From a virus: a DNA stretch of 64,000 bases. Location of the stretch: positions 64,001 to 128,000 of the IMG/VR virus record IMGVR_UViG_3300010354_000044; one strand, given 5' to 3'. A model generated the notes under the pieces. It did not search any database, had not been told where the DNA came from, and saw nothing but the letters and a program-made list of their open reading frames with translations. The position numbers and the translations under genes were made by a program. Every line of letters starts with the position of its first letter. The stretch's first letter is position 1. Shown here one piece after another: positions 1,181 to 51,061 of the stretch.

Positions 1181-1419
1181 AGCCGGAGTATAAGCTGCGC
1201 CTATTGGCTGTATACACGCAGTTTCTACTCCGGCTAAGTGGGTGTGTCTGCTGCGCCTATCCCCTGCCCCTGTCGGCTACCTGTAGGACTATTCCTACTT
1301 ATGGCTGACAGGGGCATTTTGCTTTGACCCAGATATGGGGTCGTTAAATATACGTATTCGGTTTGTCCAGCCCGCCCAAAGCTGGATTAGTAAATTATTC
1401 CCAAGGAGGGAACATCATG
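1181..1419 (+). repeat. Intergenic module copy 2 with class I element copy 4 (1325-1386)
   Basis: See 540-752. Confidence 0.85.
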
Positions 1420-4400
1420 GCTATTTTGACCATTCTTACCGTTACCGCTACTATCTCAGCCTCCGCCCCTGGGGCTAAGCCCAAAGCGCGTAAGCGCCCC
1501 AACCGTGCTGCACAAAAAGCACAGCAACGCAGGGCCGCATTCTTACGTCGTAAGCGGCAGTCCCGTAATGGGCGCCGCCCATTCCATGGGGTGCGGTATT
1601 GTAATATTGCTGATAGGCCCAAGGCCCGTCAGCAGAAGTTTTGGGCCCGTGCCCGTAAGCTGGGAGTTGCCAGGGAGGTAGCCCACCTCCTATGGATGGG
1701 CGACGACTTAGGCGCCAGGCGCGTCCTTAAGGAGGCCCGGCGGCGCTACCAAGTAAAGCGTAGCCTTGTGCTGCGCACCCCGGTTGATAGCCGGGGGGAC
1801 GAAGCTTTACAGGCCAGGCCCAGTCTAAAACCCTCCACCGGGAGGGTATTTGAGAGGGGCACTAAAGGGAAACCCCCACGTAACTGGGGGTTGACGAAAA
1901 AGTCCCAGCCAGAGCCTAGCTGGCGGGACTTCCTTGTTAAGGCTAGGGAGGTTCACCGGGACATCCTAGCTGACCTGGTTAGGGTCGTGGGTGGGGAGCC
2001 TACAGACACCGTTGTCTGTATGGCCCAAACCCCTCCTCCCCCTTCCCCCCAAGGGCGGCAGTCTACCCTCCAAAGGGTAAATGGGCTAGGGCTACCGTTT
2101 GAGCTGTCGGAGGACCAGCTCACCGCCCTAGACAAGATGCTGGCGTTCGCAGAGAGCCCGGCCCGTGGAGGTACCTTTACCTTAGAAGGGTACGCGGGTA
2201 CAGGTAAGACTACTTTGCTACCTATTTTCCTACGGTTACTGCCAAGGAATATCCGGGCGGCTACCGCAGTAACCGCGCTCAGTAACAAGGCGGCGCGTGT
2301 ACTGTCTGAGAAGCTACGGGGCCAAGGTTTACGTGTAGAGGCTTCTACCATTCACAAGCTTCTAGGTATTAAGGCTATCAAACAGAATGCAGAGATTCAG
2401 TTTGATAGGGGAGGGAGCTGCACTATCAGCGAAAACTTGCTCGTTATCGTAGACGAGGCGTCTATGCTGGGCGAGGTCTTATGGAACCATATGACTTCCT
2501 ACTTCAAGAGCATTAAGTTCTTATTTACAGGCGACCCAGCTCAGTTACCGCCTGTTAACGAAACTGGGGCTCCGTGTTTTAGCTTGGCTGATGACTATGC
2601 CAAGTTGACTAAGGTCCTTCGGCATGGCGGTCCAGTTCTACGTGAGTCAACGCTAGTCCGTGACCTGGGGCATGGTACTTACCACCCGGCTCAGTCGCTG
2701 AGTGAAGGTAATAACGTCTTCTGTTATCAGCACATTAACTGGTTTAAGGTCATTAGTGGGTTGGTAAGTGACCCTGAGAAGTGGGCCAAATTTACCGATG
2801 ATCCTAACTTCTTTAGGATTGTGGCCTGGCGTAACGCTAGGGTTGCTGAGCTAAATACCTATGTCCGCCAACTATTGCACGTAGGGAAAAAGCTGGAGCG
2901 TTTCATGGTGGGGGACCTTGTCATATTAGACGCCCCGTATGAAGACCTCTTTACAGGGGATGAGTTTTGGGTACGTGCTGTAAATAATGGCAAGGTTGAT
3001 GGCTGGAATTGCCTGGAGATTACCTTGGAACCGGTGCATGATGCAAAGGCTGAAACTATAGTACGAGTGCTTGCTGCGGAGGAAGCAAGCCGGTACAAGC
3101 AAGAGTCAGACCGGTTACGTGAACTGGCAACACAGCATGTTATTCCTTGGGCGGAGTACTGGGCGTTGCAAGAATTATTCGCAGGGCTCAGTTATGGCTA
3201 TGCTATGACAGTCCACAAGTCTCAAGGGTCTACGTTTCGTAACGTTCTGGTGGACTATAGCGACATCAAGTTATGTAGGGGTCTTGAGCTTAATAAGCTT
3301 ATCTACGTAGCTATAAGTCGTGCGTCTAAGAACGTCATTATGAACGTAGGCACGAGTCCCATTTATGAGCGGGTGAAACCTGCCGGGGAAATTGATACAG
3401 GACCGCCGGAAATACCAGAACCCCCGGTGGTGAATGCCCAGGAGCCTGTGGTAGAGGAGGCCCCGCCTACCTTGCCAGAGGAAGAGTCTGTTGCTGAGGT
3501 AGGCGCGAGCGTCTCTATTGCTGTTGCTCCACAAGAGCCGGCAGTAGAGGAAACTCAGGCTGCGCCTATTAACACAGGGCAGCCTGTGACGGAAACAACC
3601 ACGAAGGAGGAAACTATGTGGTTTGTAGAGATTGACGTAGCGGAACTCACGTTCTTTGCTACAAAGACCAATCATGCGGGTACATTCCCCGTCAACGGTC
3701 TAGAAGTCTTTAAGAAGGGCTTGCTAGGCAAGGGGTATAAGCTTGTGGAAACGCAAGTAGGCCCCGAAGGGGAGGAGCTTAAGCTCGTCTACGCTAAGCA
3801 GCCGCCTACGGCGCTTGGTGGAGAACGAGCCCCGGCTGACCCGCCTGACCAGCCGTTTGCTTCTGGCAACGTAGCCCAGTTCAAGCAGACGGTGCTGAAC
3901 TTTATTGCTCAGCGACTCGGGAAGCTGCACCAGCAGTATCCCGAGTCTGGTATGCGGGAGTTGATCGTCCGCATGACAGAGGCGATTAACTACAGCCCGC
4001 GGGATGCCTTCTTCGCCGCTCCGCTCAGTGACATGCTAAGTATGTGGGTATTTGAGGCGACCCACTCTAAGGAGCTTGGTAACCGGCCTATTCCGGTTAT
4101 TGAGAAGGAGGCTTACTACCTCTCTGGTAAGTGCCTCACTGGGCGCCCGTCGCTGATCGGAGACTTGGACCTTCTGTTGAGCCGCCAACGGCTTGACATT
4201 GAAGGCGATAGTTACCGCCTGCGGTATCCCATTGAGCAGGTAGAGGCGGCGATACTGGACGCTGAGGGCCGGGATCTCTATGAGGGTTACCGGGTTATCC
4301 TCAGCGAGGGTATCAAAAGCCACGCTGTCCTCAATGGTAACTTCCCCCACCTAGGGGTTGAAGTTGAGGATATGGCGGCAGCGCTGACTGTCCACCAGCT

Positions 4401-7400
4401 AGCGCCCAGTGCCTTTAGCTATGGCCTGCCTATCGTCAAGGCTGTGCTTGCAGAGCACCTGGCCGAGGTGCTTTGTCAACTTGGCTATAGCGAGGCTGTA
4501 GCAGGGATGGTAAGCATCCCTGCTGGGTGGAATCTGCCTTGCCCGCAGATGACTGTCGCTAAGCTCAAGAATATGCTTGAGTACATTAGCGACGTGTTCT
4601 CTTCTTTTGGTATCAAGGATTACGAGTATATCTCGTTGAGTCCTGATGCCACGGAGGAGAAGTTCACCGTGTACATCTGCGGCATTGAATTTGCCGTGGA
4701 TGCTCAAGGTGTAACCTTGGTTGACGCGCTGAATCAGAAGGCCATATACGCCACGTATATGGCCCTTCCTATTTGCCATAGAAGCATCCGGGAGGATGAA
4801 GGCGCTTTGATGAGCCCTCACGCGGTCTTCGCCTATATGCTAGCTGAGGTTGTCTTGCCTCTGCTAGTTCGGGTAGACCGTGATAGCTACCGGAATAGGC
4901 TGGTAGGTAGCAATGTCATGCAAACCTACTTCCGAGTAGCTGGGGCGGTAAACACGTATCTTCGTAATTACGTGTCTATTGACCTCCGTTCAGCTACCAT
5001 CGGTGAGCTAGACGACGCAGCAGAAGCCCGCAACCGGGGTGTCGTGGCAGTAGCCTTGAACTACCCCCGCTCCCTATACCGGGATGCTCTGCCTTCAGAG
5101 GTCAAGTCTGGCAATGGATTCTCCATGCTTAACGTAGGCCTTATGAAGGGAAACATCTACGTTGGGGGTGGCAAGGCTATGCCTTCTGAGCTCAGCGTAG
5201 AGGAACGGCAGAACCTAATCCTTGAGCGCGCTGCGCTTAAGACTTTGGGTTACGCTAACACTCAAGTAGTCCACAAGCGGATGCTTGAGCTCGGCTTCTG
5301 CCAAGAGCCGTTCGGGCGGATGACTGTGGTATCGCAGGACATCCATGGCATTAACTTCACAGGTCAGAAAGAAGCTGTGAAGGACTTCTGGGAAAGCCAG
5401 GGCGTCGTAGATGTCATGGAGGTGGCTGCAATCCTAGGCTGCAGAGCAGACTGGACGGAGATCGCGCGAGAAACTTTCGTCGCGTTGTCCAATAAGGGCG
5501 CTAAGCAGCTCAAGCGGACGGCCAACTTCTACCACAATGGCTGTATCTTCATTAGCCAGGCGGTGCAGGCGGCTCAGACCAACGGGGTCTTCAATGAAAT
5601 CAAGGCACTGGCTGTTAAGGCAATTATTGCCAACAGTGCTTTATTCGGTGGCCCTGGTATGGTTTGGGCTAACAAGCAGAAGATTCAGGACATGGGCATC
5701 CGGTACCGCACCGGTGGCCAGGTCTATGAATTCAGCTCCGAGAGTCAGCTGTACTGCGAAGGCTTCGCTTATGAAGCTCAGCATTATAACGAGCACTCCG
5801 GCTGGAACAGCGTGGAGCCTGTAGACCTCCATGTTGTAGAAGGCCGGCCCTTCGGCTTGCTCATCAAGCACGACGGGTACGAGGCAAACATCTCTGCAGA
5901 GCAGAGTGGCCAGGTCACTAAGATCATGTGGCGCTGGGTCACGAAGTTCAATGCCGAGGTGATGGAACTCCGGCTCATCTATGATAAGCGGGAGTATGGC
6001 GCCTTTAAGATCCGTAATGGCTACAAGGGCCTAGTTGCCTTCGTTGAGCCTGAACTGATCGGCAAGGGTGCTGACCTGGTTATCTTCGGGGATGCCAATA
6101 AAACCATGGACATTCTCTACTCCCGCCTACGGGAGGCCGCAGAGAGCTTCGTCCGGGTGCCCCGTGGAACTACCGTTACCCTTAACGGTAAGGACTATGA
6201 TCTCCGCGAGCTGCTGCGTTCATTGAACCAGCAGGCTGGTCCGGCCATGGGTATGGCTATTGAAGACTATGACAGGGATGATCGCCTGTTCATTGACTTC
6301 AAGCTGTTGGCTAAAGGCGCTTACGACATTGTAGGCGAGCTCTTTGAAGCTATCTTTGGCCAGTCCCACTGGTTCCGTTTTGATGGGCCCGACCTGGTCA
6401 AGTTCACGGCCCAGTATTACGGAGCCAAAGCGGAAGCCAACGAAGGCTGGCGTAAGCTGGTTCCTGCTGAGCTTAAGGGTCTAGGCTACCCGAACGCCGT
6501 CGGTTTTACCGATGGTAAAGTAAATGACCCGCATAGCAATGTGCTGGTTGTTGAAGAGGGTGTCGTGCACCACCGTTCCTGGGTCTATGCCGCTAAAGAC
6601 GGTATTGACCTGTATGTTCCGATTAAGCCGGAATATACCACCGTCAGCCAGAACGTGAACTATGCACCTTTGGCTCTCGGCCCTATTGTAGACCCCAGTA
6701 TCCCGACTGAGGTGGCCCGGGAGCTCATCCATGCTGGTGAGGCCAATCGGACCAAGTACACGCTTCTGCATATTTTGCGGAAGCATAGCCTGGGTCCTGT
6801 GGCGTTCACGATGGGTGGCGTTGAAGTGCAGACCGTAACTCTGGCTAGCACGGATACGTTTGCTGGCTTCTTTGGTGAGCATACCCAGATGCTTCAGCAC
6901 AAACGGGCCCTCAGCCGCACTAGTTTTGTACGCGCACTCTGCAACCTATTGCAGACTAAAGTGCTGTGCGTGGAAACTAGTAGATGGACCGAGAGTGGTA
7001 GGGTGATGGCTAACATTTACCTACCTCTGTTGTCCAGCTTTATCATCGGCTCGCTGGATGACCATGCCGATGAGAGCAGCCTCGCGGGTAATGCCTTCAT
7101 GTTCTTTGACATGTGGGCCGCGGGTGAATCGCTCAGTAGCCCAGCCATGGTCAAGATTGCAACTACCATAAGCAATCTGATCAGCAAGCTCTGCGACGGT
7201 AATCGTATGCAGAAGCAGCTGACCTATGGTCCTACCGCTGTAGGTGCGAAGTTGGGTGCATTGCCCATTATCCCCACTGGGGAGCTATGGGTGCTGCGTG
7301 GTGGCGAAGTGCATCGTCGCTTGAAAGTGCGCTTTGGCGATGCCATTAACAATGGCTACGTCATGATGGTGCGTGCGCCTATGACCCGTTCTTGCATCTG

Positions 7401-9942
7401 CAAACTGCGGGTTGTAGACGCTGAGCAGCGTGGGTTTGTACTAAACGGAGTGATGATGTATACATCTCCCTTCGGTCAGTACTTTAATCTAGGTGACTTT
7501 GACGGCGATGGTGTCTTTACCTATGACATCACTAAGTACGTCAACGCTGGGCTCATCAAGCAAGACTCCTACGAGTCTATGCTGGAGTTCCAGAAGTCCC
7601 TGCTCGGGTATGACATGATGTCCCCTGAGTTCTGGGGTTCTGGCGCCCCTGCTCAGTATTATGCAGACCACTATGACATTCCTAGCTACGCTGCTCTGCA
7701 GAAGAAGCTGGGTATGAAGTGTCTGGATAGCGAAGGGCGTTTGATGAACCCTGAGAAGGCCCATGTCTTTAACCGAAAAGCGTTTGAGCTAAGGCAGACC
7801 GGGGCATATGAACAGCAGACCCGGTATGTCTCTTCTTCTTATGGAGTAGAGTACTTTGCTCAGGTCTTTGCTGAGATCTGCCGGGCTATGGGCTTTAAAG
7901 ACTTCATGTGGCTGGCTGACCTAGCGCCGCAGCTGCAGTCCTTGTATGAGGTCGCCCTGGGTGGATACGACAACAACATGTTGTATGTCGCCTTTGGCCT
8001 TATGGACCGAGCCTATAACGGTATGAAGCATACGCCGCACTGGCTGAAGATTGTAGATGAAGATATCTACGATCGCTTCGTTACCGGCAAGACTCATTAC
8101 TACCGGCCTACGGCGTTTCTGAAGGATACTGAGTATACAGCCTTCACCGGGCTGCCCTTTACTGAGGTTCTTCCTTACATGCAGACCCTAGGCTTCTGCT
8201 GGAAGGATGGTAAGCGGGATGATGAGGCTATCCATGGCTTCATCAATGCCGCTATGCTCGCAGGGCTTGCTAAGGTTGCCCGAAAGCTTCCTAAGCCTGA
8301 AGACAGCACTAGCCCGGCTGCGATCGTAGACCAGCTGTTTGAAGATATGGTCGCTGTCTACGGGCGTGACTTTGCTACGGCTGTTCATATGGCGCAGATT
8401 ATCTGCGACACAAGCCGTAATAAAGATAATCAGCGGGGTGGTCAACTGTGCCGGCTTGTTCATGAGCACATGATTGAGCGTTCAGCCGTTGCGCTATTGT
8501 TCAAGCTCATCATGGATGCAAAGCAGCGTATTAACGCGCCCACGCCCGAGCTTAATATTAACGATGTCATTGCTTTGACTCGTTATATTGAGCTTGCTGA
8601 TGTCCTCTCTGAACAGGATGAGGAGTTCCTTGATGTACCTAGTACATCTGGGGAAGCTGCGGCAGAGCCTGAAGATGATAATCAAGGTGATGATGATGAA
8701 GGGGGCATTGCTGTGCCGGAGCCTACTCCGGATAAGCCCGGCCCTGCACCAGGAGCTGCTGAGCCCATTGAGGAGAGCCCTGCTGGTATTGTTCAAGAAG
8801 ATGCAGGATCTTGTATCGTACAAGATCCAGCTACTGTGGAGGTAAAATCCATGTACGTGCAGAACTGGTTCTCAAATATGCTCCCATTAGAAGTCCCAAT
8901 TAAGACTGACTTTGGGACCTTTCAAACGGTAGAGAACTACTACCAGGCTATGAAAACCCTAGACTTGGAGCAAAGGAAAATTATAGCTGAGCTATCTCCC
9001 CACGCTAGTAAGCGTTATGGTCGGCGTAAAATTCAATTACGCTCTGACTGGGAGCAGATCAAGCTAGCTGTTATGGAGGAAGCTCTTCGCAAGAAATTCG
9101 CTCCTGGGACTAAAGCCCTTGAGAGATTACTTGCAGAAAAAGGTGAGATAGTTGAATGGAATAACTGGGGTGATACTTACTGGGGGGCTCTTGCTACTTT
9201 AAGTAATGACGGAACAGTTATTCCTGTTGAGCCTCGTAAAGGCTGTAACCATCTTGGGCGTTTGCTCATGGCCGTTAGAGACGAACATTTAGCGGAGAAT
9301 AAAGTGACCGGAATATTTGACGTGCCCGCGCAGGTGCTGGTTAATCCAGTTAACTGCGGCGGTACCTGGGGCGGAGCTCTTTCCAAAGGGTTCATAGACC
9401 GATACCCAGAAAATACAGCCGCCCTCAAAGTGGCCTCTGAAGCCGGGTCCGTTAAGATAGGGCAGGTGTTAGTGACTGAGGAAGGGGGTAAGTTCATTGT
9501 GAACTTACCTACTAAGCTGGATGCTAACATCCCCAGCCGGCTCGTTGACATAGAAGCTGGTTTATACGCCTTACTAGCCTGGGCTCTGGTTAATAAGCCC
9601 AAATCCATTGCCATACCCGCCCTAGGGTGTGGCCTCGGTGGGCTTAAGTGGGAGGATGTGCTCCCAGTGATTAAACAGGTAGCCACGCTTATGGGTAACC
9701 ATGGTATTGTGGTTTACCTGTTTAACGACCGTGCCGAGCTAGTCACGGTTGACGGAGTTCCTGTCCAGTACGAGGAAGAAATCGTAGAGGAAGAGGTAGT
9801 AGAGCCCCAGCGTCCTACTCTTCCTAAGCTACCTACCCTCAAGCCTCCACAGGCTAACGATGAGGACGAGTATGTGGAGTATGTGGAGCAGGACCCCAAC
9901 ATGCCTGAAGCTGAAGTAGGGGGTCTCTTCAATAATCAATAA
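1417..9942 (+). CDS. Giant polyprotein: SF1B (Dda/RecD-like) helicase + single-chain two-barrel RNA polymerase + NADAR + macrodomain
   Basis: Helicase motifs GYAGTGKTT, VDEASM, GDPAQLPPV, TVHKSQGSTF, YVAISRA; RNAP motifs FKIRNGYKG (~6004-6030), VRAP (~7369-7380), NLGDFDGD (DFDGD 7495-7509); NADAR FSN..TVENYYQAMK..DTYWG..NHLGRLLMAVR; macro VNPVNC..NLPTK..SIAIPALGCGLGGLKW; SD-supported ATG at 1417. Confidence 0.85.
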   Translation: MAILTILTVTATISASAPGAKPKARKRPNRAAQKAQQRRAAFLRRKRQSRNGRRPFHGVRYCNIADRPKARQQKFWARARKLGVAREVAHLLWMGDDLGARRVLKEARRRYQVKRSLVLRTPVDSRGDEALQARPSLKPSTGRVFERGTKGKPPRNWGLTKKSQPEPSWRDFLVKAREVHRDILADLVRVVGGEPTDTVVCMAQTPPPPSPQGRQSTLQRVNGLGLPFELSEDQLTALDKMLAFAESPARGGTFTLEGYAGTGKTTLLPIFLRLLPRNIRAATAVTALSNKAARVLSEKLRGQGLRVEASTIHKLLGIKAIKQNAEIQFDRGGSCTISENLLVIVDEASMLGEVLWNHMTSYFKSIKFLFTGDPAQLPPVNETGAPCFSLADDYAKLTKVLRHGGPVLRESTLVRDLGHGTYHPAQSLSEGNNVFCYQHINWFKVISGLVSDPEKWAKFTDDPNFFRIVAWRNARVAELNTYVRQLLHVGKKLERFMVGDLVILDAPYEDLFTGDEFWVRAVNNGKVDGWNCLEITLEPVHDAKAETIVRVLAAEEASRYKQESDRLRELATQHVIPWAEYWALQELFAGLSYGYAMTVHKSQGSTFRNVLVDYSDIKLCRGLELNKLIYVAISRASKNVIMNVGTSPIYERVKPAGEIDTGPPEIPEPPVVNAQEPVVEEAPPTLPEEESVAEVGASVSIAVAPQEPAVEETQAAPINTGQPVTETTTKEETMWFVEIDVAELTFFATKTNHAGTFPVNGLEVFKKGLLGKGYKLVETQVGPEGEELKLVYAKQPPTALGGERAPADPPDQPFASGNVAQFKQTVLNFIAQRLGKLHQQYPESGMRELIVRMTEAINYSPRDAFFAAPLSDMLSMWVFEATHSKELGNRPIPVIEKEAYYLSGKCLTGRPSLIGDLDLLLSRQRLDIEGDSYRLRYPIEQVEAAILDAEGRDLYEGYRVILSEGIKSHAVLNGNFPHLGVEVEDMAAALTVHQLAPSAFSYGLPIVKAVLAEHLAEVLCQLGYSEAVAGMVSIPAGWNLPCPQMTVAKLKNMLEYISDVFSSFGIKDYEYISLSPDATEEKFTVYICGIEFAVDAQGVTLVDALNQKAIYATYMALPICHRSIREDEGALMSPHAVFAYMLAEVVLPLLVRVDRDSYRNRLVGSNVMQTYFRVAGAVNTYLRNYVSIDLRSATIGELDDAAEARNRGVVAVALNYPRSLYRDALPSEVKSGNGFSMLNVGLMKGNIYVGGGKAMPSELSVEERQNLILERAALKTLGYANTQVVHKRMLELGFCQEPFGRMTVVSQDIHGINFTGQKEAVKDFWESQGVVDVMEVAAILGCRADWTEIARETFVALSNKGAKQLKRTANFYHNGCIFISQAVQAAQTNGVFNEIKALAVKAIIANSALFGGPGMVWANKQKIQDMGIRYRTGGQVYEFSSESQLYCEGFAYEAQHYNEHSGWNSVEPVDLHVVEGRPFGLLIKHDGYEANISAEQSGQVTKIMWRWVTKFNAEVMELRLIYDKREYGAFKIRNGYKGLVAFVEPELIGKGADLVIFGDANKTMDILYSRLREAAESFVRVPRGTTVTLNGKDYDLRELLRSLNQQAGPAMGMAIEDYDRDDRLFIDFKLLAKGAYDIVGELFEAIFGQSHWFRFDGPDLVKFTAQYYGAKAEANEGWRKLVPAELKGLGYPNAVGFTDGKVNDPHSNVLVVEEGVVHHRSWVYAAKDGIDLYVPIKPEYTTVSQNVNYAPLALGPIVDPSIPTEVARELIHAGEANRTKYTLLHILRKHSLGPVAFTMGGVEVQTVTLASTDTFAGFFGEHTQMLQHKRALSRTSFVRALCNLLQTKVLCVETSRWTESGRVMANIYLPLLSSFIIGSLDDHADESSLAGNAFMFFDMWAAGESLSSPAMVKIATTISNLISKLCDGNRMQKQLTYGPTAVGAKLGALPIIPTGELWVLRGGEVHRRLKVRFGDAINNGYVMMVRAPMTRSCICKLRVVDAEQRGFVLNGVMMYTSPFGQYFNLGDFDGDGVFTYDITKYVNAGLIKQDSYESMLEFQKSLLGYDMMSPEFWGSGAPAQYYADHYDIPSYAALQKKLGMKCLDSEGRLMNPEKAHVFNRKAFELRQTGAYEQQTRYVSSSYGVEYFAQVFAEICRAMGFKDFMWLADLAPQLQSLYEVALGGYDNNMLYVAFGLMDRAYNGMKHTPHWLKIVDEDIYDRFVTGKTHYYRPTAFLKDTEYTAFTGLPFTEVLPYMQTLGFCWKDGKRDDEAIHGFINAAMLAGLAKVARKLPKPEDSTSPAAIVDQLFEDMVAVYGRDFATAVHMAQIICDTSRNKDNQRGGQLCRLVHEHMIERSAVALLFKLIMDAKQRINAPTPELNINDVIALTRYIELADVLSEQDEEFLDVPSTSGEAAAEPEDDNQGDDDEGGIAVPEPTPDKPGPAPGAAEPIEESPAGIVQEDAGSCIVQDPATVEVKSMYVQNWFSNMLPLEVPIKTDFGTFQTVENYYQAMKTLDLEQRKIIAELSPHASKRYGRRKIQLRSDWEQIKLAVMEEALRKKFAPGTKALERLLAEKGEIVEWNNWGDTYWGALATLSNDGTVIPVEPRKGCNHLGRLLMAVRDEHLAENKVTGIFDVPAQVLVNPVNCGGTWGGALSKGFIDRYPENTAALKVASEAGSVKIGQVLVTEEGGKFIVNLPTKLDANIPSRLVDIEAGLYALLAWALVNKPKSIAIPALGCGLGGLKWEDVLPVIKQVATLMGNHGIVVYLFNDRAELVTVDGVPVQYEEEIVEEEVVEPQRPTLPKLPTLKPPQANDEDEYVEYVEQDPNMPEAEVGGLFNNQ

Positions 9943-9987
9943 TAACTTAGCGCCCTGATCTACCTTTAGACCTAGGGCGCTAAGTTA
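9942..9987 (+). terminator. Hairpin after polyprotein gene
   Basis: TAACTTAGCGCCCT...AGGGCGCTAAGTTA inverted repeat. Confidence 0.6.
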
Positions 9988-10097
9988 TTAAGCTAACAAA
10001 TCCCCCTGGGTGTGTTTATTGCTGCGCTCTACCCTGTATAGGGTCCAGGTGCGGTTCCGGTCTTTGGTTTGTCGGTGGTGTCCGTAGGGTGTCGGGC

Positions 10098-10226
10098 TGG
10101 CCTGCTTCGGTTCGGGTTGGCGGCAGTCTGCAGAGCCTGTCGGTCTGTGCCCGCATTGTTGGGGCTGTCCACTTCCACCGCGTTGTTGGATTGGCCTGCT
10201 TCGGTTCGGGTTGGCGGCAGTCTGCA
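10098..10226 (+). repeat. 35-bp direct repeat TGGCCTGCTTCGGTTCGGGTTGGCGGCAGTCTGCA (2 copies)
   Basis: Copies start near 10098 and 10192. Confidence 0.85.
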
Positions 10227-10254
10227 TCGTTGTTGGAATACTAGGAGAAAGAAA

Positions 10255-14610: not shown

Positions 14611-15321
14611 ATGTACTTAGTAGGGGGGTCCGTTAGGGACCTTTTGTTAGAGCTCACTGTTGACGACTACGACTTTGTATTCGTAGCCTACAGCTGGGAG
14701 CATTTGGTAGAACTAGCCCAAGGGGAGTTTGGGCCAGTTCCTAAGGCCGGGACGGAATCTGGATTTGTTGAATTTCCAGACACCTTCACCTTAAAGGGGA
14801 TGAAGGTGATTGATAGGAAGCGGCAGATCTGTGACATTGCCGCTGCCCGGCGGGAATACCACAGTGGCCCCGGGCATAAGCCCTCGGCTATTTCTTTGGC
14901 GCCTACGCTAGAGGAAGACCTAAAGCGCCGGGACTTCACAGTTAACGCGATGGCACGTGACTGGAAGACCGGTGAGTTAATTGACCTATATGGCGGGCAG
15001 GCCGACCTGTCCGCCAGGGTGCTTCGCTGTGTCGGCGATACGGAAAAACGCCTATTAGAGAACCCAGACCGGGTAATCCGGGCGTTTTATTTCCAGTGTA
15101 AACTAGTAGGCTTCACATTCTGTGAAGAGCTGGAAGCAGTTCTTCGTGAGTCTGTGGTGGTTCAAAAAGCAGTCGCCGACGACTGCCCTGACCGAAAAGC
15201 TCAGCAGCTGACTAAGCTCCTTAAAAGGGCTTCAACGGCTGAGCTGATGGGAACGATCTCCGAATACCCCCAAACATGGGCGGCGATCACAAAGGGGCTT
15301 AAGCTAAAGTTCACAACTTAA
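14611..15321 (+). CDS. tRNA nucleotidyltransferase (CCA-adding/poly(A) polymerase class II), short form
   Basis: VGGSVRD, DYDF, RRDFTVNAMA, ENPDRVIRA motifs. Confidence 0.85.
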   Translation: MYLVGGSVRDLLLELTVDDYDFVFVAYSWEHLVELAQGEFGPVPKAGTESGFVEFPDTFTLKGMKVIDRKRQICDIAAARREYHSGPGHKPSAISLAPTLEEDLKRRDFTVNAMARDWKTGELIDLYGGQADLSARVLRCVGDTEKRLLENPDRVIRAFYFQCKLVGFTFCEELEAVLRESVVVQKAVADDCPDRKAQQLTKLLKRASTAELMGTISEYPQTWAAITKGLKLKFTT

Positions 15322-27023: not shown

Positions 27024-27443
27024 ATGTTGTACTACCATGGAAGTACTATCTACTTACCAGTAGGTACTTTACTGAGGCCCGGGATAGACTATGAAAAGCA
27101 CTGGGCGTCAACCGATTTTTATACTGCTCTAGAGCATTACAGACCAACTGGTAAGCTAGCGCATAAAGACGCTGTTTTTATGTGTGAGTCTGAAGATGAT
27201 GTTGATTTATGCGGCGGAGGTACTGAGTGGTTATTTAGTGTTAACCCTCTTGGCCCGGTGCATAAACACGATGTGAATTGGTCTAGTGAGATTAGTTGTT
27301 TAATCTCTAAGGGGTATTCTATAAATAGCCCTGAAGTAGAATCGGCGGCGTCTAGCTACTGGAATTCTATGCCTCATTACAATGAAAGCGTGTGGGAGTA
27401 CTTAACGCCCTCCGCTACGATCCTAAAAGTTGTACGGTACTAA
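27024..27443 (+). CDS. Putative Arr-like ADP-ribosyltransferase
   Basis: YYHGS...L.VG.LL.PG start and FSVNPLGPVHKHD segment resemble the rifampin ART (Arr) family. Confidence 0.55.
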   Translation: MLYYHGSTIYLPVGTLLRPGIDYEKHWASTDFYTALEHYRPTGKLAHKDAVFMCESEDDVDLCGGGTEWLFSVNPLGPVHKHDVNWSSEISCLISKGYSINSPEVESAASSYWNSMPHYNESVWEYLTPSATILKVVRY

Positions 27444-28077: not shown

Positions 28078-29139
28078 ATGAGAATGATAAGATTCCCTGA
28101 CGTTGGACAATTTAGGAATGTGGTCCAGTCACTTCGTCTGCGTGCTCAATTTGCAGGCAAGGCAGAGGATGGGACTCCTATTTATGACGAGTCAAGAAAG
28201 GCGCAGCCTGTTACCTTTTCTGGAACTGTAAAGCTTGATGGAACCAATGCTGCTATCTGTTTTGATGGCGAGAATACCTGGTTCCAGTCCCGAGAGAGGA
28301 TTCTTACCCTTGAAAGTGATAACTATGGGTTTTGTCGGAGATTTCAACAGGATGAAGCAGTTACTTCTTTGATTTCAAGTGTCACTGCAGCAGTGGAGTT
28401 TTCTAACGGGGAAACTCTTTGCATCTTTGGAGAGTGGATTGGAAAAGGCATTGCCAAGGGTATGGCCGTCTGTCAGATTGAGAGAGAGTTTATTGTTTTT
28501 GGCGTTGCTGTTTGCTCAGCCTTTGAAGGTGAACAGGCGGATGACTCTGCCTCTCTTAAGTGGATTGATTTAGGTACGCTTGATCAGGCGATTAAGGGTA
28601 GTGGCTTTGACACTGTTCTATCTTGTCCTCAGTATTTGCTTGTCGTTGATCCAGAGAATGCGGAGGCAGCCTGGCATACTGCAAAATCGCTAACTGACCT
28701 TGTTGTTAGTGAATGTCCATTTGGAAAGCTTCGCGGGAAAGTTGGAGCCGGAGAGGGTATTGTTTGGTTTGGTACTGATGATACTGGGAAAACTTTCCTG
28801 TTTAAAACCAAAGGGCAGAAGCAGTCTGTTGTCTCCTCTCCTAAGGAACTCCCTAAGTTTGAGGCTCAGGGTGCAATTAACACCTTTGTCACTGATGTAC
28901 TTACTGAGGCCCGGTTGAATCAAGGGATTGAGCGGGTCTTTACTGCAAACGACATTGTTCCGTCTATTGAAAAGACTGGCTCCTTCCTTCAGTGGATCAG
29001 CCGCGACATTGAAAAGGAGGAGGGTTTCTCTTTTGAGGCTCTTGCTGCTCTTGGTATTACCAAGAAGAAAGCTATGGGTCCAGTCAATCGTGCCGCTCGC
29101 GATTGGTTTATGGACTATCTAAACTTGTTGTCCCTGTAG
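28078..29139 (+). CDS. RNA ligase, Rnl2-like
   Basis: KLDGTN, FQSR, FGEW, GEGIVW, FKTK nucleotidyltransferase motifs. Confidence 0.85.
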   Translation: MRMIRFPDVGQFRNVVQSLRLRAQFAGKAEDGTPIYDESRKAQPVTFSGTVKLDGTNAAICFDGENTWFQSRERILTLESDNYGFCRRFQQDEAVTSLISSVTAAVEFSNGETLCIFGEWIGKGIAKGMAVCQIEREFIVFGVAVCSAFEGEQADDSASLKWIDLGTLDQAIKGSGFDTVLSCPQYLLVVDPENAEAAWHTAKSLTDLVVSECPFGKLRGKVGAGEGIVWFGTDDTGKTFLFKTKGQKQSVVSSPKELPKFEAQGAINTFVTDVLTEARLNQGIERVFTANDIVPSIEKTGSFLQWISRDIEKEEGFSFEALAALGITKKKAMGPVNRAARDWFMDYLNLLSL

Positions 29140-48838: not shown

Positions 48839-48865
48839 TTGTCTAAACCCTACCCCAAGGAAAAT

Positions 48866-51061
48866 ATGGCTACCATCAACCTGCTACCTAATTACCTTTA
48901 CCTCGCGTCAGGGCCCTCGGCGTCGGGTAAGAGCACAGCACTTAAGGGCCTGCCTGCAGGGGTAGTGGTGTCCTCAGACAGCTTGAGAACCCAAATATTC
49001 GGTCTTGAAGCTGATACTGTAGAGGGTAACCTACTAGCCCCTCCTAGCCTAAGACCCCGCCCTGTCAACGATAGCTTTATCTTTGACACCATGAGACAGA
49101 TCGTGGAGGCCCGTCTTAAAGCAGGACTGACAACAGTCGTAGACGCAACTTTGTTAACCGACCGTGACCGCAAGCAGTTCGTGGATATAGCTGCTAGCTA
49201 CAACGTCCCTGTTCAGATTTTGATCTGGGATGTTCCCGCCGAGCAGCTGACTACTAGAGATGCAGATCGTCAGTTCCGGGTAGGGGCTGAGGTTATCCAG
49301 CGACAACTGGAGCGCTTTGAGCGTACATCCCAGTACTCCTATATTGTAGACGACTACTTTGAGCTTGAAATAGCTCACCTAACAGTAGCTAGTAGCGTAG
49401 AACTGGATTTCGTGGGTGACATCCACGGCTGCTACGACCAGTTAATAGAACTGATTGAAAAGCTAGGCTATGTTATTGGCGAGGACGGTATTGCTAGGTA
49501 TGCTGGTAATGAGCCCCGGCGTCTGTGCTTTTTGGGCGACTATGTAGACCGAGGGCCCAAGTCCTTAGAGGTACTCAAATTCATTTACCGGAATACGCCT
49601 ACGCATTGGGCGTTGCTGGGGAACCATGATAGTAACCTTCTCAAGGGGTTGCTAGGAAAACCCGTAACCTCCAAGGCCACACAGGAGACCCTCCATGAAG
49701 TGATGGTCGCCAAGGCGGAGAAGTGGGTTACAGAGCTACTGACCTCACTGCCTCGTTATCTAACCTGGCGGAATGTCGTTATTTGCCATGCCGACATCCA
49801 GAGGCTTAACTTACCTCAGGAGACAACTCAGTGCGTTTACGGTTGTAGTAAACTGAACAGGCCTATAAACGCCGATGAAATCTGGAGTAAGACTGAGAAG
49901 CGCCTGCTTATCCGCGGTCACTTTACTCCTGACCACGAGTACGATAACGTCATTACCCTGGACGGTAATCCGGGCTATGGCGGTACTATTAAAGCAGGGC
50001 GTTTTGCTGTTGCTCAAGTTGCGGGTCGGAAGCATGATAACTTCTTAATCCAGCAATGGATTGAATTCTCATTAGGGCCTACGGAAGATTATGAAGAACG
50101 CAAGAAGACTGTAATAGGTTTTCGCCTTGCCGCTATGCCAAAAGAGTTGGTTAGCACGGCTACATCGCCTTGCGGCCACCTCAAGCTGTTTAAATACACG
50201 CCTAATGCCTTTAGACAGTCCTTTAAATCTGAAGGGCCTTGGCTGGAGTACCCTGACCTTAAGTACGCCCGAGGCCTTGTCGTAGGCCTTAACCACCAAC
50301 CGGTGAACACGGTCTTTCCTAAAATTCCTAGTTACACCGAAGGAATTGATCCGAGCAAGCAGGTGATTGCCGCGACAAAGTTGAACGGCTTTCTCCTAGC
50401 TACATTCAGACATCCTTACAAAGAGGATGTGGTCTTCACTACTACCGGGTCGTTTGACTCTGAGTACGTAAAGATGGGCCGTGCATTGTTCTACAAGCAC
50501 GCAAAACAGTCTCGGCAGCAGCTCCTAAACAGCCCGGGATTGACATTCTTGTGGGAGGTTATAGACCCTAATAAAGACCAAAATGTCCACCCTATTGCCT
50601 CGTCCGCAGGCATCTACCTAATTGCTGTAGGGCAAAATGGGGTAATCCTCCCCGAGGAGGAGATGCAAAGCTACGCCGGCAACTTGAATGTCAACTGTGC
50701 CAGTCATGTACAGACTGACTTCGGGTCAGTCCTAGAAATGGCCCGCACCAGCGACGGCGAGGGCTATATGATTAGGGACTTGGAAGGTAACTACCTTGCA
50801 AAGCTCAAATCACCGTTTTACCTGACTGTCAAGAAGTTTATGCGTCTATCGCCAAAGGCGGGCGCACAGCTCTTTAACGACCCTATTAATTTCAACTTTG
50901 AGTATATTTGGCAGCAGTGCATGGACAACCCTTATGCCAACGACCTTTATACCCGGCAGACAGCTATCGCCGAAGCTATCCGAACACACTTTTCCTGTGA
51001 AACTTGGCAACAAGCAGATAGTTTAACCCGTAGAGAATTTCTCTATCGCATGTTAAGCTAA
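48866..51061 (+). CDS. Polynucleotide kinase-phosphatase-ligase (Pnkp-like RNA repair enzyme)
   Basis: GPSASGKST..VSSD..VDAT kinase; GDIHG, GDYVDRG, LGNHD metallophosphoesterase; KLNG, WEVI, EGY, KLK ligase motifs. Confidence 0.88.
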   Translation: MATINLLPNYLYLASGPSASGKSTALKGLPAGVVVSSDSLRTQIFGLEADTVEGNLLAPPSLRPRPVNDSFIFDTMRQIVEARLKAGLTTVVDATLLTDRDRKQFVDIAASYNVPVQILIWDVPAEQLTTRDADRQFRVGAEVIQRQLERFERTSQYSYIVDDYFELEIAHLTVASSVELDFVGDIHGCYDQLIELIEKLGYVIGEDGIARYAGNEPRRLCFLGDYVDRGPKSLEVLKFIYRNTPTHWALLGNHDSNLLKGLLGKPVTSKATQETLHEVMVAKAEKWVTELLTSLPRYLTWRNVVICHADIQRLNLPQETTQCVYGCSKLNRPINADEIWSKTEKRLLIRGHFTPDHEYDNVITLDGNPGYGGTIKAGRFAVAQVAGRKHDNFLIQQWIEFSLGPTEDYEERKKTVIGFRLAAMPKELVSTATSPCGHLKLFKYTPNAFRQSFKSEGPWLEYPDLKYARGLVVGLNHQPVNTVFPKIPSYTEGIDPSKQVIAATKLNGFLLATFRHPYKEDVVFTTTGSFDSEYVKMGRALFYKHAKQSRQQLLNSPGLTFLWEVIDPNKDQNVHPIASSAGIYLIAVGQNGVILPEEEMQSYAGNLNVNCASHVQTDFGSVLEMARTSDGEGYMIRDLEGNYLAKLKSPFYLTVKKFMRLSPKAGAQLFNDPINFNFEYIWQQCMDNPYANDLYTRQTAIAEAIRTHFSCETWQQADSLTRREFLYRMLS

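Follow-up and report, generated by a model that had tools for sequence, protein, structure and literature searches.

The window analysed here is the whole 64-kb stretch of DNA (64,000 nucleotides), which belongs to a 172-kb uncultured phage record and contains a giant gene encoding 2841 aa from ATG 1417, with AAGGAGG upstream. The protein (database record P0002) consists, in order, of an Arg-rich N-terminus, an SF1B helicase, a two-barrel RNAP core, a NADAR domain, a macrodomain and an acidic tail. Residues are numbered on the 2859-aa translation of window positions 1363-9942. The ortholog in an 86%-identical sister phage (L023) is full length and likewise uninterrupted. The features were as follows:

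1417..9942, + strand: giant gene, a single stop-free ORF whose frame is open from 1363
2092..3378, + strand: SF1B (Dda/RecD/Pif1-like) helicase, aa 244-672 (Pfam, PHROG)
3886..8622, + strand: single-chain two-barrel RNA-polymerase-like core, aa 842-2420 (motifs, AlphaFold2 model, Foldseek, VIA)
8623..8850, + strand: acidic/Pro-rich disordered linker, aa 2421-2496 (composition)
8838..8853, + strand: candidate internal start, in-frame GGAGG, 8-nt spacer and ATG 8851 (SD and ATG kept in L023)
8851..9303, + strand: NADAR domain of the YbiA subfamily, aa 2497-2647 (Pfam, YbiA alignment, catalytic motifs)
9313..9747, + strand: DarG-type macrodomain without the DarG C-terminal DarT-binding domain, aa 2651-2795 (Pfam, PDB, PADLOC, NCBIfam)
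9352..9534, + strand: sharply bounded divergent patch, aa 2664-2724, 61 codons (window compared with L023 DNA)
9748..9939, + strand: acidic/Pro-rich C-terminal tail, aa 2796-2859, predicted disordered (pLDDT below 50)

The helicase was confirmed by Pfam matches to AAA_30 (1.2e-21), AAA_19, UvrD_C_2 and PIF1, and it also matched PHROG 325, a Dda-like helicase (1.6e-77). Searches of Pfam and PDB sequences with the core sequence gave no match, and its assignment as a two-barrel RNA polymerase is supported by the predicted fold. The AlphaFold2 model of the core (pLDDT 84.9, pTM 0.83) found multisubunit RNAP beta/Rpb2 or beta' chains in all of its top 50 Foldseek PDB matches, and VIA aligned it with QDE-1 and RDR2 (Z 12 over 376-463 residues). 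The core carries a beta'-like VRAPMT motif (7369-7386) and a metal-binding DFDGD motif (7495-7509), the DxDGD being kept throughout the polymerase family, which was sampled as 61 representatives. Its top viral match was an uncharacterised protein of Microcystis phage MaMV-DC, and its dN/dS against the sister phage was 0.12. The original prediction that the NADAR and macro domains are tethered to the polymerase protein was therefore borne out, since helicase, polymerase and both domains lie in the same ORF.

The NADAR domain was identified by Pfam (PF08719, aa 2501-2641: E 2.1e-18, 67.5 bits, cut-off 35.1), and TIGR02464 scored 69.7 bits, slightly below its cut-off. E. coli YbiA (2b3w) was matched by phmmer among PDB chains (7e-13), and the NADAR part of the AlphaFold2 model superposed on it with a TM of 0.67. 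All three catalytic residues are kept, namely Glu2524 (8932-8934), Lys2531 (8953-8955) and Glu2598 (9154-9156), in the motifs ENYYQAMK and IVEWNNWGDTYWG; these were mapped to E43/K50/E125 of the P. nicotianae NADAR (PMC11543638). The domain is 94% identical in amino acids to that of the sister phage, with a dN/dS of 0.08, i.e. strong purifying selection. Its closest relatives are DUF4326-NADAR fusions, and it has neither the Asp nor the basic N-terminal extension typical of DarT1-associated NADARs. The predicted anti-DarT1 role is weakened by the subtype: as the domain is YbiA-type and not of the DarT1-associated kind, the claim rests on the in-vitro activity common to all tested NADARs (PMC11125620). 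Guanine-ADPr was removed by every NADAR subtype tested and thymine-ADPr by none, the latter being removed by DarG (PMC11125620). By extension from all assayed NADARs, we expect guanine-ADPr glycohydrolase activity here. However, it should be noted that E. coli YbiA and the T4 NADAR cleaved G-ADPr in vitro yet failed to protect cells against DarT1 of E. coli C7 (PMC11125620).

For the macrodomain, Pfam gave Macro PF01661 at aa 2660-2769 (E 1.3e-10, 41.7 bits, cut-off 22), and the phmmer matches among PDB chains were DarG of M. tuberculosis (5m3i, 1e-18), DarG of T. aquaticus (5m31, 6e-17) and TARG1 (1e-6). In the AlphaFold2 model of aa 2497-2859 (pLDDT 79.9; both domains mostly >90) it superposed on DarG macrodomains with TM 0.84-0.87 and rmsd 1.0-1.7 Å. 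Over the macro half only, it was matched by the DarG model of PADLOC (119.7 bits) and by NCBIfam antitoxin_DarG, whose 113 bits lie under the 250-bit cut-off. The catalytic Lys2718 (9514-9516), within NLPTK, aligned to K80 of TaqDarG, and the glycine loop LGCGLGGL lies at 9622-9645. A DarT-like ORF was present at 67 of the 80 nearest bacterial loci, four cyanobacterial ones included, and was directly upstream in 58; the relatives P0062 and P0074 lie directly 3' of DarT genes. By sequence, then, the closest cellular relatives are true antitoxins, and membership of the DarG/TARG1 class, as originally predicted, and DarG ancestry are supported by the best PDB sequence and fold matches and by the aligned Lys. 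No DarT gene was found across the 172-kb phage record, which makes this an orphan antitoxin-like domain. The two domains are adjacent, in frame and intact, as had been proposed; of the span first given, 8851-9725, the start is an in-frame ATG precisely at the linker/NADAR border, but the end falls about 7 codons before that of the macro fold at 9747.

Within the macrodomain, a patch reaching from ADP-ribose loop 1 to slightly beyond the catalytic Lys is about 50% identical to L023 at the DNA level, compared with about 97% on both sides, and contains no indels; the encoded residues are 43% identical there. L023 retains the DarG consensus GVMGKGLA and PTKGHWR, where the window has GTWGGALS and PTKLDAN. 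In TaqDarG numbering, Lys29 is replaced by Gly and His82/Trp83/Arg84 by Asp/Ala/Asn, and G30 and Q34 are also changed, while the equivalents of K80, T79, N22, G117, G119 and G121 are kept. Homologues of the window patch are few and weak (best 43%), compared with 48 for the L023 patch (median 52%), and no second copy was found in the phage record. Judging from these sequences, the patch is a derived replacement, the sister phage retaining the DarG residues. In TaqDarG, K29E strongly lowered activity, and activity in vitro hardly changed with H82A or W83A (PMC5179494). The predicted anti-DarT2 function therefore keeps its catalytic Lys but is less assured in the window phage than in L023, as K29 and H82/W83/R84 have been replaced.

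The linker before the module has a GC3 of 0.30 and evolves near neutrally (dN/dS 0.89 against L023). A 5-mer SD precedes only 3 of the 70 in-frame ATGs of the giant ORF (1417, 3616 and 8851), and all three are kept in L023, that at 8851 despite the near-neutral evolution of the linker. This suggests that a separate 363-aa NADAR-macro protein may also be made from 8851, so that the tethered form is perhaps not the working form. The C-terminal tail is regarded as conserved because it is 84% identical to that of L023 (dN/dS 0.165).

The module is patchily distributed among related phage polymerases. Core relatives at 24-37% identity (P0004/L021, P0005, L030 and P0134) lack it, and among the core relatives compared only L023 has it. 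A 208-kb, 97%-complete relative (G001) has a bare core and contains neither NADAR nor macrodomain anywhere in its genome, indicating that the module is dispensable for the polymerase. Sequence comparison thus supports a later addition, accessory to the core. The original argument from base composition held within the ORF, where NADAR (GC 0.446, GC3 0.43; core 0.534, 0.62) falls in the lowest 1% of ORF windows, but not for the 64-kb window, in which its GC is ordinary (mean 0.477; 29th percentile). It is the core that is GC-rich rather than NADAR that is unusually AT-rich, so later acquisition is favoured by the distribution and only weakly by GC.

Distant members of the polymerase family carry other domain fusions: core-NADAR-AlkB-helicase (P0178), core-NADAR-helicase (P0188), core-AlkB-helicase (P0164) and core-DUF4326-helicase (P0171). 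The NADARs of the two giants P0178 and P0188 have His at the Glu2598 position and are 30-34% identical to the window NADAR, and so represent another subfamily and an independent fusion. By sequence, NADAR has joined this polymerase family at least two times independently, as Glu-type here and as His-type in these distant giants, and the recurrence of NADAR, AlkB and DUF4326 makes the link to the polymerase look functional. AlkB is a direct-reversal repair enzyme which acts on alkylated bases of ssDNA and RNA. Its presence in the module slot suggests nucleic acid, not small molecules, as the shared substrate, and AlkB and DUF4326 in this slot together argue for lesion reversal on nucleic acid. 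For DUF4326 and SLOG, however, soluble ADP-ribose derivatives are the predicted substrates (PMC9503650), and in L021 a SLOG gene occupies the same slot, directly 3' of the core gene.

We give an even chance to the C-terminal 363 residues being a two-enzyme module which strips ADP-ribose from nucleic-acid bases as a phage counter-defence. To our knowledge, bacterial ADP-ribosyltransferases of the DarT kind target ssDNA only. Their adducts would impede polymerases, and a protein with both helicase and polymerase activity on phage DNA would expose the ssDNA substrate as well as encounter the lesions. The YbiA-type NADAR would cut the N-glycosidic ADP-ribose-guanine bond and the DarG-type macrodomain the ADP-ribose-thymine bond via Lys2718; we infer phage ssDNA bearing ADP-ribose on G and T as the substrate. 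With erasers in cis, and probably also free from 8851, repair may take place at the site of need early in infection. ADP-ribosyl-thymidine in DNA is reported to inhibit transcription, which may itself provide ssDNA for DarT (PMC12170906). The benefit of tethering, predicted as a targeted counter-defence, would fit the repeated independent fusions of base-repair domains to this polymerase family but fits less well with the conserved SD and ATG at 8851. If the proposal is true, the polymerase-borne module most likely reverses the tagging of phage DNA by a bacterial defence.

It is also conceivable, though rather unlikely, that the module is partly decayed cargo: NADAR would work, but the 61-codon replacement would have cost the window macrodomain its catalysis or turned it into an ADP-ribose reader, 'dual eraser' then being true of the sister phage only. 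The altered residues, a whole-macrodomain dN/dS of 0.40 and the fall in PADLOC DarG score from 184.5 bits in L023 to 119.7 point this way; against it, the frame is intact, the equivalents of K80, T79, N22, G117, G119 and G121 are kept, the fold is predicted at high confidence, and TARG1, an active enzyme reported to remove thymine-ADPr too (PMC8501950), has Ala at the W83 position. The same chemistry could instead serve RNA, with guanosine-ADPr (NADAR) and phosphate-end ADPr (a TARG1-like macrodomain) being cleared from nascent or processed phage transcripts within a programme of RNA protection or repair. On RNA, too, guanosine-ADPr is reversed by every NADAR subtype tested, and human TARG1 takes 5'/3'-phosphate ADPr off RNA (PMC11833690); moreover, the module is attached to an RNA polymerase, RNA virus replicase polyproteins contain Macro, NADAR and AlkB domains (PMC9503650), and the window encodes an RNA ligase (28078-29139, PF09414), a CCA-adding/poly(A)-polymerase-type nucleotidyltransferase (14611-15321) and a 740-aa protein whose C-terminal part resembles an RNA ligase. 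We nevertheless judge this unlikely: the nearest macrodomain relatives are DarT2-linked DarG antitoxins acting on ssDNA, the bacterial TARG1-like SCO6735 had no activity on phosphate-end ADPr (PMC11833690), and KptA/Tpt1 (PF01885) was absent from the phage record when searched.

Soluble ADP-ribose derivatives were proposed by Iyer, Burroughs and Aravind as targets of most phage Macro and NADAR domains (PMC9503650), and the module might accordingly break down ADP-ribose-derived signals of immunity or metabolites that are toxic, such as cyclic ADPR isomers and ADPr-1''-phosphate, with fusion serving only co-delivery or co-expression with an early protein. That work describes viral NADAR-Macro tandems, frequent SLOG/DUF4326 co-fusion and predicted virion packaging; such combinations were found here (P0126-P0128, P0171 and the SLOG gene after the L021 core gene), and the window NADAR is nearest to DUF4326-NADAR fusions. 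This is distinctly unlikely in our view, as the macrodomain is nested within DarT-linked DarGs, every NADAR assayed to date cleaves base-linked ADPr, the slot is shared with AlkB, which works on nucleic-acid bases, and the proposal is older than the experiments on AdfN and AdfM. Highly unlikely is a writer-eraser pair, in which a phage ADP-ribosyltransferase would modify macromolecules of the host or the phage, and erasers on the polymerase would protect or reset phage DNA, RNA or polymerase. The candidate writer, ORF 27024-27443, groups in the protein atlas with phage hypothetical clusters, some members carrying DUF2441, and with a cluster whose automatic, structure-based name is 'toxin-antitoxin system protein'; it has no match in Pfam, in PDB sequences or to Arr-ms, and neither DarT nor KptA occurs in the phage record.

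Compared with known systems, the core shares DxDGD, a beta'-like RxP and two double-psi barrels per chain with single-chain two-barrel RNAPs (QDE-1/RDR2, YonO, crAss-like gp66 and the P23-45 virion RNAP), of which QDE-1 and RDR2 gave the best structural alignments (Z about 12). No sequence similarity to any of these was detectable, and fused helicase and base-repair domains are undescribed for them in the literature searched. The macrodomain is 33-36% identical to DarG of DarTG2 from T. aquaticus and M. tuberculosis (5m31, 5m3e, 5m3i) and keeps Lys80, Asn22 and the Gly117/119/121 loop but, unlike DarG, has no DarT-binding domain or adjoining DarT, and Lys29 and His82-Trp83-Arg84 are replaced. 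Free phage proteins are known to defeat both systems: NADARs, AdfN among others, for DarTG1 (PMC11257639) and AdfM, a DarG-like macrodomain, for DarTG2 (PMC13309987). The DarTG1 counters AdfN (T4 gp30.3) and the Bas32 and Bas60 NADARs (PMC11257639) have the Glu/Lys pair in common with the window NADAR; AdfN, small and free, belongs to the His-type phage NADAR subfamily, a type found also in P0178 and P0188, whereas the window NADAR is fused and Glu-type (YbiA-like). AdfM (PhiKZ gp104), a chimallivirus orphan DarG2-like macrodomain (PMC13309987), and the window macrodomain are both phage-borne and DarG-type with a conserved catalytic site, have neither DarT-binding domain nor DarT partner, and have a predicted role in clearing thymine-linked ADP-ribose from phage DNA. 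However, AdfM is free-standing and imported into the phage nucleus, whereas the window domain comes last among the folded domains of a 2841-aa helicase-RNAP, beside NADAR, and has lost K29 and H82/W83/R84. In replicase polyproteins of positive-strand RNA viruses (PMC9503650), Macro, NADAR or AlkB share a polypeptide with helicase and viral polymerase; those are protease-processed, RNA-dependent polymerases of eukaryotic viruses, and the likeness to this DNA phage two-barrel polymerase is best read as analogy, with no homology of architecture. Viral NADAR-Macro tandems and polyvalent NADAR/Macro/SLOG/DUF4326 proteins (PMC9503650) also have both domains on one polypeptide, and we recovered tandems of about 300 aa (P0006, P0008, P0010, P0011) and larger NADAR+DUF4326+Macro proteins (P0126-P0128); unlike the window protein, the published ones have no polymerase or helicase. 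A NADAR or Macro fusion to RNA polymerase is unmentioned in PMC9503650, in a jumbo-phage survey (term searches) and in our literature search. The idea is therefore less novel than first assumed, AdfN, AdfM and viral NADAR-Macro tandems being already known (PMC11257639, PMC13309987, PMC9503650); what is new is the fusion of both erasers to a helicase-RNA-polymerase, together with the recurrence of such fusions in the polymerase family.

The window comprises bases 64001-128000 of an IMG/VR virus record of 171,984 bp, with an estimated completeness of 87%, and the NADAR and macrodomain module is encoded at the 3' end of its giant gene. The main features of this gene are listed here, with amino acid (aa) positions counted from the opening of the frame at 1363.

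Features of the giant gene and its protein
Window 1363-9942: open frame of the giant gene; likely start at ATG 1417 with AAGGAGG ahead of it, yielding 2841 aa (P0002)
aa 248-672: SF1B helicase (Dda/RecD/Pif1-like); Pfam AAA_30, UvrD_C_2 and PIF1
aa 2501-2641: NADAR (PF08719); Pfam E = 2.1e-18, 67.5 bits against a curated cut-off of 35.1
aa 2660-2769: Macro; Pfam E = 1.3e-10, above the curated cut-off

Both RecA-like halves of the helicase were covered by the Pfam matches (AAA_30 77.7 bits, UvrD_C_2 39.1 bits, PIF1 28.5 bits), and the domain also matched PHROG 325 (1.6e-77) and carries a Walker A motif, GTGKT, at aa 279. Compared to L023, the equivalent locus of a sister phage, the helicase (window 2092-3378) was 69% identical with a dS of about 1.4 and the adjoining core 92% identical with a dS of 0.35; this lower identity and higher dS suggest that the helicase module has been swapped by recombination (mosaicism). 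The Arg-rich N-terminal region (window 1417-2091; aa 43-224) might serve in DNA binding or as a signal for packaging. It is kept, at 32% identity, in P0004 (aa 156-319), a more distant relative which has no helicase, and it therefore belongs with the polymerase core, with the helicase inserted behind it.

The core, approximately 1,600 central residues, had no match in Pfam, PDB chain sequences (profile search, E up to 10) or phage genomes, and none of 50,697 deposited phage genomes was hit when the polymerase part was searched with blastn and tblastn. As the core profile matched no PDB sequence, its assignment as an RNA polymerase rests on motifs and predicted fold rather than on sequence homology. 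The motif VRAPMT (aa 2003-2008), which resembles the RxP of beta', is followed 41 residues on by GDFDGDG (DFDGD at aa 2045-2049), and the D-x-D-G-D and R/P columns were nearly invariant across the 26 family members compared. Modelled with AlphaFold2, aa 1350-2420 (pLDDT 84.9, pTM 0.83) show a pair of DPBB domains in the arrangement of RNAPs. In a Foldseek search of the PDB, the top 50 matches of this model were without exception RNAP chains (beta/Rpb2 or beta'), with E from 3e-5 to 4e-4 and a low overall TM of about 0.12. Its best VIA alignments were with QDE-1 and RDR2, two-barrel polymerases made of a single chain, at Z of about 12 over 376-463 residues (QDE-1: Z = 12.0 over 422-463 residues), and segments of Rpb2 and Pol I A190 also aligned. 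Taken together, the motifs and the predicted fold support a two-barrel RNA polymerase. The top viral match of the model (BFVD) was an uncharacterised protein of Microcystis phage MaMV-DC (E = 3e-16); this phage was rejected as a culturable relative, since despite that structural rank neither the core profile nor NADAR-macro matched its genome at the sequence level.

At 8851-9725 the original prediction had put a neighbouring pair of intact-looking domains that process ADP-ribose, and this was borne out by Pfam, with both domains above their curated cut-offs and both calls in agreement with PHROGs. TIGR02464 scored 69.7 bits on the NADAR, slightly under its cut-off of 73.7, and in an AlphaFold2 model the domain superposed on YbiA (2b3w) with a TM of 0.67. 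The motif ENYYQAMK supplies E2524 and K2531, a Glu/Lys pair seven apart, and IVEWNNWGDTYWG supplies E2598; the catalytic equivalents are E43, K50 and E125 in the crystallised P. nicotianae NADAR, and E88/K95 in that of E. coli C7 (PMC11543638). The third residue marks the subtype, being Glu in the YbiA subfamily, Asp in DarT1-linked NADARs and His in T4-type phage NADARs (PMC11543638). The window NADAR belongs to the YbiA subfamily, with all three catalytic residues present. It is not of the type associated with the DNA ADP-ribosyltransferase toxin DarT1 (DarG1, BC4488 subfamily), as it has Glu instead of Asp at the D171 position, and it begins right behind a disordered linker without the basic N-terminal extension typical of DarT1-associated NADARs. 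Cihlova et al. tested four NADAR subtypes, all of which removed ADP-ribose (ADPr) from guanine and none from thymine, the latter bond being removed by the antitoxin DarG; in the same study cells exposed to E. coli C7 DarT1 were rescued neither by YbiA nor by the T4 NADAR (PMC11125620). DarTG1 was defeated by the free T4 eraser AdfN and by two unrelated phage NADARs (PMC11257639), and guanosine-ADPr on RNA is also a NADAR substrate (PMC11833690). Because the assayed NADARs act on guanine-ADPr and DarG on thymine-ADPr (PMC11125620), the two domains would, by analogy, be chemically complementary, in line with what had been predicted.

The macrodomain is of the DarG/TARG1 class, with DarG as the nearest structure. 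In a phmmer search of all PDB chain sequences its best matches were the DarGs of M. tuberculosis (E = 1e-18) and T. aquaticus (E = 6e-17), followed by TARG1. An AlphaFold2 model of the module (aa 2497-2859; pLDDT 79.9, both domains mostly > 90, tail disordered) gave the same order, with the DarG macrodomains 5m3e, 5m3i and 5m31 at a TM of 0.84-0.87 (rmsd 1.0-1.7 Å) and TARG1 next. The DarG models were matched in their macro half only, at positions 9-145 for PADLOC (E = 4e-35) and 8-150 of 338 for NCBIfam antitoxin_DarG (E = 1e-32, 113 bits against a 250-bit cut-off), and the C-terminal DarT-binding domain of DarG is absent. In TaqDarG numbering, the residues kept are K80 (here K2718, in NLPTK), T79, N22 (LVNPVN) and G117/G119/G121 (LGCGLGGL); of these K80 is the catalytic nucleophile (K84 in TARG1), and roles are also described for N22 and the G117-G119-G121 loop (PMC5179494). 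A DarT-like ORF was found at 67 of the 80 nearest bacterial loci, immediately upstream in 58, including loci from Oscillatoriales, Elainellaceae and two Pseudanabaena genomes, and two macrodomain relatives of approximately 42% identity lie directly 3' of a DarT gene. Since a search of the 172-kb phage record for DarT (PF14487) found none, the window macrodomain is an orphan antitoxin-like domain. In this it is similar to AdfM of PhiKZ, for which the logic of such an orphan has been shown experimentally (PMC13309987).

Window and L023 DNA were ~97% identical up to ~9352 and again from ~9535, and ~50% identical in between, with no indels. Judged by the sharpness of this drop and recovery, the intervening 61-codon patch is a replaced segment and not the product of gradual drift. 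It spans the region from ADP-ribose-binding loop 1 to slightly beyond the catalytic Lys, and reads GTWGGALS and PTKLDAN in the window versus GVMGKGLA and PTKGHWR in L023, which has the DarG consensus. The window copy thus lacks the DarG-specific Lys29 (GxMGKG loop) and His82-Trp83-Arg84. In TaqDarG, activity fell strongly with K29E, whereas in vitro it was little changed by H82A or W83A, and TARG1 carries Ala at the W83 position (PMC5179494). The window patch had weak homologues, the best at 43%, and the L023 patch had 48 with a median of 52%; the PADLOC DarG score was 184.5 bits for L023 versus 119.7 bits for the window. We rejected the idea that the patch came from a diversity-generating retroelement, as no second or template copy was found in the phage record and the differences are not limited to one base. 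The predicted action against DarT2 is therefore a safer claim for L023, which keeps the DarG consensus, than for the window copy, which has lost K29 and H82/W83/R84.

The NADAR had also been described as AT-richer than the polymerase and hence as a late acquisition. It is indeed the most AT-rich stretch inside the ORF (GC 0.446, GC3 0.43, lowest 1% of windows), but with a mean GC of 0.477 in the 64-kb window it lies only at the 29th percentile; the GC-rich outlier is the polymerase core, with the macrodomain core-like in GC. The composition argument is therefore weak, and we rejected the step from AT-rich to recent as stated, late acquisition resting instead on phylogenetic distribution. Comparison to L023 gave the following values.

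Divergence of parts of the giant protein between window and L023
NADAR: dN/dS 0.08, aa identity 94%
Core: dN/dS 0.12, aa identity 92%
C-terminal tail: dN/dS 0.165, aa identity 84%
Linker before NADAR: dN/dS 0.89, aa identity 75%
Macrodomain: dN/dS 0.40, aa identity 69%

The tail after the macrodomain (window 9748-9939) consists of 64 aa, is acidic/Pro-rich and disordered and is under purifying selection; it may serve for docking or mimic DNA. Only 3 of the 70 in-frame ATGs had GGAGG or AGGAG 5-12 nt upstream: 1417 (the gene start), 3616 (the end of the helicase-core linker) and 8851 (the linker-NADAR border). All three are kept in L023 along with their Shine-Dalgarno (SD) sequences, and as the one at 8851 is conserved even though the second linker is nearly neutral, it is a plausible candidate start for a free NADAR-macro product of 363 aa. 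The one at 3616 (window 3601-3618) could give a polymerase isoform without helicase.

The giant gene ends in TAA TAA, and directly 3' of this stop there is a perfect inverted repeat (window 9945-9995; TAACTTAGCGCCC ... GGGCGCTAAGTTA), which looks like a terminator or RNA-stabilising hairpin. Beyond it lies a G/T/C-rich, A-poor tract (10040-10236), upstream of the next SD and ATG at ~10256, containing a direct repeat of ~35 nt, GGCCTGCTTCGGTTCGGGTTGGCGGCAGTCTGCA, with copies at ~10098 and ~10193.

Only four proteins in a set of 5.8 billion closely resembled the core. L023 was 86% identical to the focal protein with an identical layout of the full architecture; in P0004 (32% identity) the Arg-rich N-terminus and the core are present, and helicase, NADAR and macro are missing; and L030 encodes a bare core of 1829 aa in a 97%-complete 208-kb phage in whose genome no NADAR or macro was found anywhere. 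A pattern search of IMG/VR with alignment A1 found one locus only (L030), and a single core sequence found none. At L021, the locus of P0004, a 326-aa SLOG-family gene (YpsA/DprA-like; L021:9248-10228) overlaps the stop codon of the polymerase and sits where the eraser module sits in the window. When 1.84 billion representatives were searched with a profile, 61 family members came up, the longest of 4,116 aa. Together with the focal protein in two further forms, these 61 made 63 sequences that were scanned for domains; as many members are cut by contig ends, the domain counts are lower bounds.

Domains found in the polymerase family
SF1B helicase: 19 of 63 scanned; C-terminal in all but the focal clade and P0134, a more distant core relative
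NADAR: three lineages
AlkB-type dioxygenase: family members P0164 and P0178
DUF4326: family member P0171
Macro: focal clade only

Two other family members have the orders core-NADAR-AlkB-helicase (P0178) and core-NADAR-helicase (P0188), and their NADARs carry His at the position of Glu2598 and are 30-34% identical to that of the window. From these different subfamilies and domain orders, we infer that NADAR joined the polymerase family at least twice. A decayed-looking NADAR was seen in family member P0138 (1738 aa) at aa 1600-1738, with the distal half only, a Pfam E of 6e-4 (below the cut-off) and no ExxYQxxK. Presence and absence in related polymerases support the prediction that the module is a later addition. 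The idea that NADAR and macro arrived as one ready-made cassette was not supported, because the nearest relatives differ between the domains (DUF4326-NADAR or solo proteins for NADAR, others for macro), tandem NADAR/Macro proteins occur in both domain orders and GC3 is unlike (NADAR 0.43, macrodomain 0.56).

We consider it about an even chance that the module de-ADP-ribosylates nucleic-acid bases and so shields the phage DNA that the helicase and polymerase open up, in which case guanine adducts would fall to NADAR and thymine adducts to the macrodomain. ADPr-thymidine in DNA inhibits transcription, and transcription may supply ssDNA to DarT (PMC12170906). AlkB repairs the bases of ssDNA and RNA by direct reversal. 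The recurrence of the fusions and the company of AlkB are the strongest argument here that the erasers work on the nucleic acid of the polymerase. The same chemistry could be directed at RNA, which is favoured by the activity of NADAR on RNA (PMC11833690) and by RNA-ligase and CCA-enzyme genes near the giant gene. The RNA-end-processing genes observed were an RNA ligase at 28078-29139 (PF09414) and a PolyA_pol/CCA-adding-type nucleotidyltransferase at 14611-15321 (PF01743); at 48839-51061 there is also a protein of 740 aa which is similar to phage RNA ligases over its C-terminal 300 aa. A search of the phage record for KptA/Tpt1 found none.

Another explanation is that the module scavenges soluble ADP-ribose signals, for which the DUF4326 and SLOG neighbours speak, although that proposal (PMC9503650) predates the experiments on AdfN and on the free macrodomain eraser AdfM. 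The module could also be the eraser of a phage writer-eraser pair, but the candidate writer, an Arr-like ADP-ribosyltransferase of 139 aa at 27024-27443, has no profile support and was rejected, having no match in Pfam, PDB sequences or Arr-ms. In the protein atlas this ORF gave weak leads to phage hypothetical clusters, some with members carrying DUF2441, and by structure it lay near a bacterial cluster auto-named 'toxin-antitoxin system protein'. Lastly, the macrodomain may be decayed; judged from its residues, the patch could mean either weakened activity or altered specificity. Beyond base erasure at this locus, we tentatively suggest, as a possibility we hold somewhat short of even, that these giant two-barrel RNAPs of large uncultured phages, usually fused to SF1B helicases, form an undescribed family with a slot for direct-reversal repair enzymes (NADAR at least twice, DarG-type macrodomain, AlkB, DUF4326), in which the polymerase would strip defence-made base adducts from template or transcript while moving, a phage form of transcription-coupled lesion reversal. 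If true, the sharply bounded replacement by which the macrodomains of two 86%-identical phages differ in their active-site half would reflect an ongoing arms race over eraser specificity.

Defence by ADP-ribosylation of phage DNA (DarTG1, DarTG2) and its reversal by free AdfN and AdfM are recent discoveries. The use of a phage NADAR against DarT1 (AdfN) and of a phage DarG-like macrodomain against DarT2 (AdfM) is thus already known. Viral tandem NADAR-Macro proteins have also been published (PMC9503650), and we recovered such tandems of ~300 aa (P0006, P0008, P0010 and P0011). In the literature, the coverage of which was incomplete so that absence is not proof, we found no report of erasers fused to a helicase-RNA-polymerase protein, of NADAR, AlkB and DUF4326 recurring in such a polymerase family, or of an allelic swap of the substrate-facing half of a macrodomain. 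The giant-gene locus suggests that phages also fix erasers onto the machine which opens and reads their DNA, and that guanine- and thymine-specific erasers can be combined in one polypeptide. Recurrence in the slot allows one to argue from context for nucleic acid as the substrate of these phage NADARs, which is in dispute in the comparative-genomics literature, and DUF4326 gains a functional lead from sharing the slot. The window and L023 macrodomains are a natural allele pair differing only in the substrate-facing half, well suited to tests of specificity. The layout of helicase, polymerase and Macro/NADAR/AlkB is known from the replicases of RNA viruses, and here a DNA phage converges on it.
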